Of a DNA stretch of 64,000 nt, positions 16,526-18,378 are shown piece after piece. This stretch comes from Escherichia coli (GTDB lineage Bacteria; Pseudomonadota; Gammaproteobacteria; Enterobacterales; Enterobacteriaceae), in the NCBI RefSeq assembly GCF_017348835.2, contig NZ_CP071375.1. One strand, given 5' to 3'. Position 1 is the stretch's first letter, and every line of letters starts with the position of its first letter. The notes beneath the pieces are model-generated. The model was not told the DNA's origin. It was given only the letters and a program-made list of their open reading frames with translations, and did no database searches. A program made the position numbers and the translations under genes.

Positions 16526-16819
16526 TTACTGCATAACAGGTTGAATGTCGTGGATACGTACAAAGCCTAACTGATCCACAGAAATCCCCTTTAACTGTAA
16601 CGGAATATCAACATCGCTGGGGGCGAGGACGCTGGCAGGGGCATTAATCAATTGATTCTGCACATTGATTTCCTGAAAGTTGTCTATTGTTCCCTGAATT
16701 TGCCCATATTCAACGGTTCCGCTGAATGCGGGCAAGGGATCATTCGACTCGCCCTGAATACGTAGCGTCAGGGTGGTGCCATCTGTATCAGGCGTAATAT
16801 TCACCAGCGACATACGTAA
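16526..16819 (-). pseudogene. yajI: yajI lipoprotein gene, 3' fragment (interrupted by IS copy B)
   Basis: ORF ...RMSLVNITPDTDGTTLTLRIQGESND... continues in frame from the 5' fragment once the IS and one TAA repeat are removed. Confidence 0.8.
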
Positions 16820-16873
16820 TGAACCGCCCCGGAAATCCTGGAGACTAAACTCCCTGAGAAAGAGGTAAACAGG

Positions 16874-17200
16874 ATGACTAAAAATACTCGTTTTTCCCCC
16901 GAAGTCCGTCAGCGGGCGATTCGTATGGTTCTGGAAAGTCAGGATGAATATGACTCACAGTGGGCGGCAATTTGTTCCATTGCCCCAAAGATTGGCTGTA
17001 CGCCGGAGACTCTGCGTGTCTGGGTTCGCCAGCATGAGCGGGATACCGGGAGTGGTGATGGTGGACTCACCACCGCTGAACGTCAGCGTCTGAAAGAGCT
17101 GGAACGTGAAAATCGTGAACTGCGCCGCAGTAACGATATCCTTCGCCAGGCTTCCGCTTATTTTGCGAAGGCGGAGTTCGACCGCCTCTGGAAAAAATAA
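16874..17200 (+). CDS. IS3-family transposase OrfA
   Basis: 108-aa ORF, differs from copy A by T30A (SQWAAICS versus SQWTAICS). Confidence 0.9.
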
Positions 17201-18087
17201 TGCCACTGCTGGATAAGCTGCGTGAGCAGTACGGGGTCGGACCGGTATGCAGCGAACTGCATATTGCCCCGTCAACGTATTACCATTGTCAGCAACAGCG
17301 ACATCATCCGGATAAACGCAGTGCCCGTGCGCAGCACGATGACTGGCTGAAGAAAGAGATACAGCGCGTATACGATGAAAATCACCAGGTATACGGTGTG
17401 CGTAAAGTCTGGCGTCAGTTGTTACGGGAAGGTATCAGAGTGGCCAGATGCACTGTGGCACGTCTCATGGCAGTTATGGGACTTGCCGGTGTTCTCCGGG
17501 GTAAAAAGGTCCGCACTACCGTCAGCCGGAAAGCCGTTGCCGCATGCGACCGCGTAAACCGTCAGTTCGTGGCAGAACGTCCAGACCAGTTGTGGGTGGC
17601 TGATTTTACCTGGGTAAGCACATGGCAGGGCTTCGTTTATGTGGCGTTCATCATTGATGTGTTCGCCGGATACATCGTGGGATGGCAGGTCTCATCATCC
17701 ATGGAAACAACATTCGTGCTGGATGCACTGGAGCAGGCGTTGTGGGCCCGTCGGCCGTCCGGCACAATCCATCACAGTGATAAAGGTTCTCAGTATGTAT
17801 CGCTGGCCTACACGCAGCGGCTTAAGGAAGCCGGATTACTGGCATCAACAGGGAGTACTGGCGACTCGTATGACAACGCGATGGCGGAGAGCATCAATGG
17901 TCTTTACAAAGCGGAGGTAATACACCGTAAGAGCTGGAAAAACCGTGCAGAAGTGGAACTGGCCACACTCACGTGGGTGGACTGGTATAACAATCGACGA
18001 TTGCTGGAAAGGCTGGGCCATATTCCTCCGGCAGAAGCAGAAAAAGCTTATTATGCTTCCATCGGAAATAATGATCTGGCAGCCTGA
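17200..18087 (+). CDS. IS3-family transposase OrfB
   Basis: 295-aa ORF, differs from copy A at two or more residues (G13V; T to A in SWKNRAEVE). Confidence 0.9.
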   Translation: MPLLDKLREQYGVGPVCSELHIAPSTYYHCQQQRHHPDKRSARAQHDDWLKKEIQRVYDENHQVYGVRKVWRQLLREGIRVARCTVARLMAVMGLAGVLRGKKVRTTVSRKAVAACDRVNRQFVAERPDQLWVADFTWVSTWQGFVYVAFIIDVFAGYIVGWQVSSSMETTFVLDALEQALWARRPSGTIHHSDKGSQYVSLAYTQRLKEAGLLASTGSTGDSYDNAMAESINGLYKAEVIHRKSWKNRAEVELATLTWVDWYNNRRLLERLGHIPPAEAEKAYYASIGNNDLAA

Positions 18088-18129
18088 GTTCACAGATAAA
18101 ACACTCTCCAGGAAACCCGGGGCGGTTCA

Positions 18130-18378
18130 TAAAGTACCGATCTGGCTTTCCAGTCTTGCCGGTGTTTTCGCTTCAGGCAGAAGGTAAACCCCACTGCTGG
18201 ATTTTGCATTCAGCCTGTTTTGCTGAGTGATTTTGACCGTTTCTTTATTGAGTTGCGTCATCTCCTGGTTCAGCGTGCTGACGCTGTGTTTCATCTGTCG
18301 CACTTCGCTTTGCTGCACACAGGCGCTAAGGCTGAACAGGCTTCCCAGCAGGAGCAGTCGAAAAACGTTAGTATTCAT
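18130..18378 (-). pseudogene. yajI: yajI lipoprotein gene, 5' fragment (signal peptide and lipobox LSAC)
   Basis: MNTNVFRLLLLGSLFSLSACVQQSEV...IGTL then runs into the IS end where a stop is encountered. Confidence 0.8.

Follow-up and report, generated by a model that had tools for sequence, protein, structure and literature searches.

IS629, of which IS1203 and IS3411 are isoforms, belongs to the IS51 group of the IS3 family and occurs in E. coli and Shigella; the -1 frameshift of its group is stimulated by an RNA structure, the ALIL pseudoknot. IS629 is reported to make target duplications of 3-4 bp and to have no strict target sequence (Rump et al., PMC3271280). Proteins of the YajI/SadB family begin with a coiled coil and end with a beta-sandwich; what is ordered in the YajI structure 2JWY is the C domain (Grin et al., PMC3953254). 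YajI itself has no known function (PMC3953254); it has been placed among the outer-membrane lipoproteins whose N-terminal linker is disordered (bioRxiv 10.1101/2021.01.05.425367), and a loss-of-function mutant of Salmonella yajI had no bile-sensitivity phenotype, although the gene is bile-induced (PMC3261920). The position of yajI between tsx and nrdR is conserved, and tsx lies about 300 bp downstream of yajI and does not share an operon with it (PMC3953254).

The element and the gene meet in the window, by which we mean the whole stretch of 64,000 nucleotides of Escherichia coli DNA that was analysed. Here the yajI reading frame is split by a copy of IS629 (copy B), and we conclude with great confidence that a single recent IS629 transposition into yajI codon 83/84, in the lineage of the porcine strain PE164, gave rise to a simple loss-of-function allele. 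Over the query the window is a 100% match to the record of PE164, a strain from diarrhoea and blood of a pig in Nanjing (NZ_CP114128), and it differs from PE164 RefSeq by one base over 14,253 bp, at window position 14021, inside the other IS629 copy (copy A); the window thus stems from a different version of the assembly or from an isolate almost identical to PE164. The strain paper on PE164, which makes no mention of yajI, IS629, or pseudogenes, presents this porcine strain as an aEPEC/ExPEC hybrid with serotype O108:H9 (PMC12233904).

As read from the sequence, yajI lies on the minus strand, with its start ATG at 18376-18378 and its stop TAA at 16526-16528. The 5′ fragment (18130..18378, minus strand) holds 83 native codons by translation and encodes the signal peptide, the lipobox, and the N-terminal coiled-coil/linker region; reading from 18378 its product begins MNTNVFRLLLLGSLFSLSAC... 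and ends ...ESQIGTL, and residues L17-S-A-C20 fit the lipobox pattern [LVI][ASTVI][GAS]C in a regex search, with Cys20 as the predicted lipidation site. Directly after codon 83 comes a TGA (18127-18129, minus strand), the reverse complement of the terminal TCA at the right end of the IS; the truncated gene, which falls within ORF 18127..18438 of the ORF list, thus consists of 83 native residues with zero IS-encoded residues appended, just as the preliminary description had proposed when it allowed only 83 residues plus a stop supplied by the IS terminal repeat. On the far side of the element the frame resumes as (L)RMSLVNITPD... at 16819, and the 3′ fragment (16526..16816, minus strand, by translation) comprises codons 84-179 plus the stop, RMSLVNITPD...PVMQ. 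This fragment is the beta-sandwich DUF3251 domain; it is without a signal peptide, and reading of the sequence revealed an internal Met85 near its start but no convincing Shine-Dalgarno sequence. The remaining 96 codons stand 1.3 kb away from the N-terminal half, and the frame as it is cannot give a full-length product. The gene start at 18378 and both junction peptides, which had been noted earlier, are confirmed by this reading.

Deletion in silico of the IS and of one TAA joins the two halves into a 540-nt ORF, whose length is divisible by 3 and whose only stop is the terminal one; it encodes a protein of 179 aa. The comparison with intact K-12 YajI (b0412, NC_000913) suggested in the preliminary description was run: the joined product aligns over its full length and gap-free, with 176/179 residues identical (98%), and the three substitutions (Q45K, G69E, A93T) are the same three found in the intact allele of strain F2_81. 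That the interrupted gene is yajI, as originally claimed, is borne out by i) a match to Pfam DUF3251 (PF11622) at 296.8 bits (cut-off 23, E=4.9e-89); ii) a match to NCBIfam PRK11530 (NF008575) at 316.7 bits (cut-off 158) over positions 1-179; iii) a match to PDB 2JWY ("uncharacterized lipoprotein YajI") with E=6e-97; iv) the 98% identity to b0412; and v) the gene order tsx-yajI-nrdR-ribD, as in K-12. The RefSeq annotation of PE164 (PGAP) gives both the 5′ piece (incomplete, missing C-terminus) and the 3′ piece (incomplete, missing N-terminus) as "DUF3251 domain-containing protein", each flagged pseudo, and places an "IS3 family transposase (programmed frameshift)" between them. yajI is here an insertional pseudogene, already marked as such in public annotation.

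The inserted element, copy B, is 1310 bp long and occupies 16820..18129 on the plus strand. Its boundaries were set by comparison with the empty F2_81 site, and it carries its transposase genes on the opposite strand to yajI. It starts TGAACCGCCCCGG and finishes CCGGGGCGGTTCA, with the TGAACCGCCCCGG... terminus at both ends. The left inverted repeat IRL (16820..16844, plus strand; TGAACCGCCCCGGAAATCCTGGAGA) matches the reverse complement of the right end at 22/25 positions, and inverted-repeat comparison places the right inverted repeat IRR (...TCTCCAGGAAACCCGGGGCGGTTCA) at 18105..18129 on the plus strand; the first 13 positions of the two repeats are identical, and the ends are TG...CA. Between them, the ORF list and Pfam give orfA (16874..17200, plus strand; 108 aa, HTH_Tnp_1, PF01527) and orfB (17200..18087, plus strand; 295 aa from its ATG, with a DDE/rve integrase core), the Pfam matches of orfB being rve (PF00665, E=1.7e-26), HTH_21, and rve_3. 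The sequence predicts a 404-aa OrfAB fusion, produced by a -1 shift within the A6 stretch at 17192-17197, in agreement with the "programmed frameshift" of the PGAP annotation, and the ALIL pseudoknot (Rfam RF01497) is found at 17155..17271 on the plus strand as a full-length model match scoring 120.3 bits (gathering score 50, E=1.1e-31).

At the level of the family, orfB passes the NCBIfam IS3-family transposase model NF033516 transpos_IS3 with 312.6 bits against a cut-off of 160; at the level of the element, copy B shares 99.2% identity over its full 1310 bp with the phage BP-4795 copy, deposited under the annotation IS629 OrfA/OrfB, and for the copies carried by many Stx2a phages the figure is 98.5%. 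Flank comparison identifies a target-site duplication TAA, with its left copy at 16817..16819 (the Leu83 codon TTA on the minus strand) and its right copy at 18130..18132. In a four-way alignment this TAA/TTA is single-copy in F2_81 and K-12, with one at each junction of the window. Judged by its sequence, copy B is an intact IS629 that is apparently functional, in which every IS3-family feature that sequence can reveal was found.

The empty site is preserved in E. coli F2_81, which was isolated in Australia from a rectal swab of a pig, keeps yajI intact, and is the closest relative found. Over its 940 bp (yajI with 200 bp of flank to either side) the rejoined locus shows 100% identity to its uninterrupted counterpart in F2_81, and the 200-nt rejoined junction is present there exactly. 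The earlier account of an IS interruption with a TAA repeat, whose halves join in frame once the IS is removed, therefore holds down to the junction itself, with the 540-nt frame and the 179-aa product as given above. When both IS copies, one TAA, and one GCAA are removed, 12,367 bp can be compared with F2_81 with zero mismatches, and the sole difference from the window is a homopolymer (T9 vs T14) some 5 kb off. Neither half of yajI has acquired secondary mutations relative to the intact F2_81 allele. Among 5426 complete E. coli genomes, an IS629-type element lies in the yajI interval in two, and the exact site of copy B is occupied in PE164 only. Because there are no substitutions relative to F2_81 and the insertion is confined to 1/5426 genomes, it is recent and took place after the split from a near-identical sister strain; the suggestion of a recent insertion thus gains from the unmutated halves, the 12.4 kb without substitutions, and the rarity of the allele.

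With an element this repetitive, one may ask whether the interruption was created by the assembly, through a misplaced repeat copy among some 30 IS629 copies, in a genome whose yajI is truly intact. As many as 32 places in the PE164 chromosome record match copy B, and the one-base difference between the window and RefSeq, lying as it does inside an IS copy, points to some consensus uncertainty within the repeats. Yet a misjoin would not create what the junctions carry, a perfect duplication of 3 bp that F2_81 and K-12 each have only once; the 5 differences between copies A and B imply that the copies were resolved separately; and an independent genome, CUPF12, has the same IS at another position in yajI, flanked by a separate 3-bp duplication. 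We therefore regard an artefact as having a vanishingly small probability, and take the transposition into yajI to be real.

Copy A is the only other IS629 copy in the window and hence the only possible partner of copy B within it; it lies at 13129..14438 on the minus strand, is flanked by a 4-bp duplication, GCAA, and does not belong to the break in yajI. The two copies are inverted relative to each other and bracket the 2381-bp segment parE-yajD-tsx-'yajI; by direct comparison they differ at 5 nt and are 99.6% identical. An initial description of the pair as 100% identical arms was rejected as a product of rounding, in view of the 5 differences in the direct comparison. Copy A sits in the last codons of the parD antitoxin gene, 11 nt upstream of parE; in F2_81, parD and parE overlap as an intact pair.

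Composite transposons are known from the IS group to which IS629 belongs, for example Tn3411, which is flanked by IS3411, and two inverted copies that are 99.6% identical and flank 2381 bp could be taken for another, such that copies A and B jointly form a composite transposon or an invertible segment carrying parE-yajD-tsx-'yajI, and the break in yajI is merely one of its ends. However, each copy has its own matching duplication, and the outer flanks, GCAA for copy A and TAA for copy B, share no target duplication; moreover, the intervening segment is at its native place and in its native orientation compared with F2_81, so that no joint movement or inversion has occurred. A history of inversion or composite transposition for the pair was rejected for the further reason that separate removal of each copy together with one duplication restores F2_81 exactly. 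Because of the separate duplications and the native orientation and position of the segment between them, copies A and B are best explained as two independent simple insertions, and we consider a joint composite or invertible unit extremely unlikely.

PE164 is not the only strain in which yajI has been interrupted. In CUPF12, from pig faeces in Thailand, a 1310-bp IS629 with its own 3-bp duplication is inserted 35 nt into yajI (about codon 12). In strain 2020N21-110-15, a 1748-bp element of the IS200/IS605 family with tnpB is inserted at yajI codon 43/44 with no target duplication, and the same codon 43/44 junction occurs in 341 of the 5426 complete genomes, with hosts that are mostly human among the genomes listed. 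Our survey of the yajI locus covered these 5426 complete E. coli genomes, of which 5424 matched and 5080 were contiguous; 343 of the 344 non-contiguous loci are explained by the IS200/IS605 allele, PE164, and CUPF12, and yajI is interrupted in about 6% of complete E. coli genomes. The insertions in PE164, CUPF12, and the 341 genomes are independent events, and YajI is dispensable in nature.

Recurrence of this kind could mean that the insertion is not neutral, and that selection in the pig-associated lineage favoured either the absence of YajI or a change that the IS brings about in nrdR-ribD (by antisense or read-through transcription) or in tsx. There are at least three independent yajI disruptions among the 5426 genomes (at codon 83, about codon 12, and codon 43/44), one of which, the IS200/IS605 plus tnpB allele, has reached 341 genomes; both IS629 alleles come from pig isolates; and the reading direction of the transposase exits IRR toward nrdR. 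Against this, three IS events are about what neutrality would lead one to expect for a non-essential gene of 540 bp when thousands of genomes rich in IS are surveyed (a rough estimate made without computation); IS629 has no strict target preference (PMC3271280); a consensus scan gave no sigma-70-like promoter at either end of the IS; the Salmonella yajI mutant was without a bile-sensitivity phenotype (PMC3261920), and YajI has no known function (PMC3953254); and F2_81, likewise a pig isolate and the closest relative found, keeps its yajI intact. We judge selection on the PE164 insertion to be very unlikely. There is likewise only a slim chance that yajI inactivation is under recurrent positive selection in some lineages, or that the two inverted IS629 copies around parE-yajD-tsx are an incipient module able to move or invert; if recurrent selection were nevertheless the case, it would point to an envelope function of YajI, a paralogue of SadB, that is costly in certain hosts.

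Under the preferred reading, a single simple transposition into yajI, the sequence of events would be as follows. The IS629 DDE transposase, produced by -1 frameshifting between orfA and orfB, would have inserted the element in codon 83/84 with duplication of the target TAA, and yajI translation would now halt at the TGA that the end of the IS supplies, yielding a precursor of at most 83 residues. The window agrees with F2_81 in the start codon, the signal peptide, the lipobox, and the 150 bp that precede yajI; initiation of transcription and of translation is therefore expected to proceed, and by the standard lipoprotein pathway the 83-aa precursor would be converted to a lipid-anchored N-terminal peptide of about 64 residues. 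Since the break falls at about the start of the C-terminal beta-sandwich domain, this stub would be without a folded module. The downstream 96 codons, which have neither a signal peptide nor an evident ribosome-binding site, are probably silent.

Neighboring genes are expected to be unaffected, since tsx and nrdR-ribD each have their own upstream region; nrdR is transcribed divergently from yajI. A consensus promoter scan of 16200-18600 found no sigma-70-like outward or hybrid promoter at either end of the IS, the only promoter-like matches falling in the tsx upstream region, and in a scan of the same interval for terminators, terminator-like matches were not clearly above shuffle expectation. 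The transposase frame does point through the yajI 5′ fragment to nrdR, and, to go by this arrangement, transcription may read out of the IS in that direction.

What we have described is an ordinary strain-specific IS629 knockout, and its significance beyond strain bookkeeping is very little. It does indicate that IS629 is active now, or was recently, in the porcine aEPEC/ExPEC O108:H9 strain PE164, and two IS629 insertions within 5 kb, absent from the otherwise identical F2_81 locus, could serve as strain markers, in the manner of IS-printing. The allele is also further evidence that natural isolates can do without YajI, a lipoprotein conserved among enterobacteria, and it makes PE164 a natural yajI null for studies of the SadB/YajI family.

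Comparison with the known members of that family places the rejoined gene squarely with K-12 YajI (b0412; PDB 2JWY; DUF3251; "SadB/YajI family lipoprotein"), with which it shares the same 179 aa, the lipobox, and the tsx-yajI-nrdR context; the gene in the window differs in being split, with only residues 1-83 translatable from the native start. Salmonella SadB is a paralogue of YajI and, like it, combines a coiled coil with a beta-sandwich (PMC3953254), but the two share only 14% sequence identity. SadB is a trimeric inner-membrane lipoprotein that assists the trimeric autotransporter SadA, whereas yajI is unlinked to any autotransporter; and the residue at +2 after the lipid-modified Cys is Val in YajI but Asp in SadB, which is predicted to be retained in the inner membrane because of this Asp.

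The other natural yajI::IS alleles inactivate the same gene as in PE164 but at different sites, and in the 341-genome lineage by an element of another IS family. As for the element itself, copy B has in common with IS629 as it is known the length of 1310 bp, the termini, the orfA/orfB -1 frameshift, the ALIL pseudoknot, the DDE core, and a duplication in the 3-4 bp range, and structurally there is no difference between them. What sets copy B apart is where it has landed: codon 83/84 of yajI, in a porcine strain of serotype O108:H9, is a new site and not one of those catalogued in O157:H7.

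The second IS629 copy in the window (copy A, 13129-14438, minus strand; surrounding region, 12901-14731) is flanked by a GCAA duplication (13125-13128 and 14439-14442) and interrupts a parD/parE type II toxin-antitoxin pair located between secF and yajD. The insertion shortens parD from 80 to 76 aa, with the stop codon supplied by the IS end; the parE ORF is kept whole, and 1.3 kb now separates it from parD and the parD promoter. In the near-identical pig strain F2_81, parD/parE is intact and the two genes overlap; K-12 lacks the module. The parE toxin gene orphaned behind copy A may be of some interest.

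Copy A and the IS629 copy within yajI (copy B) are in opposite orientation and 99.6% identical, together spanning 13129-18129; the 2381 bp between them carry parE, yajD, tsx, and the yajI 3′ fragment. Such an arrangement lends itself to composite transposition, or to inversion through homologous recombination. The target duplications, taken together with the F2_81 sequence, show that neither event has taken place. Across the 14,253 bp compared with RefSeq NZ_CP114128.1 (porcine E. coli PE164), the sole mismatch falls within orfB of copy A, at 14021, where the window has C and RefSeq has A (Val13 to Gly). This suggests another version of the assembly, a variant of the isolate, or a consensus error within repeated sequence.

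The yajI gene is also interrupted in other E. coli genomes. In CUPF12, from pig faeces in Thailand, an IS629 (locus L002, 6706-8015) in the same orientation as copy B lies 35 nt from the yajI start, in the signal-peptide region, with a 3-bp duplication, and is an event independent of that in the window; PGAP nonetheless annotates a 173-aa "yajI" in CUPF12 from an alternative start reaching into the IS end, probably an annotation artefact. In 2020N21-110-15, the insertion is a 1748 bp IS200/IS605-family element (locus L004, 5610-7357) with a degenerate tnpA and an intact tnpB/InsQ, located at yajI codon 43/44 without target duplication. This insertion is common to 341 of 5426 complete E. coli genomes (2020N21-110-15 and 340 others); the host is human in 7 of the 12 listed, and none is given for the other 5.

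Downstream of pgpA, a pentapeptide-repeat gene contains a poly-T tract (window ~23100, corresponding to ~11490-11505 of the F2_81 locus L003) that is T9 in the window and PE164, where the 1572 nt ORF is intact, and T14 in F2_81, where the gene is annotated as frameshifted; the difference may stem from missequencing of the homopolymer or from a tract prone to slippage. PE164 and F2_81 share this gene after pgpA, whereas K-12-like strains such as CUPF12 have yajO in that position.
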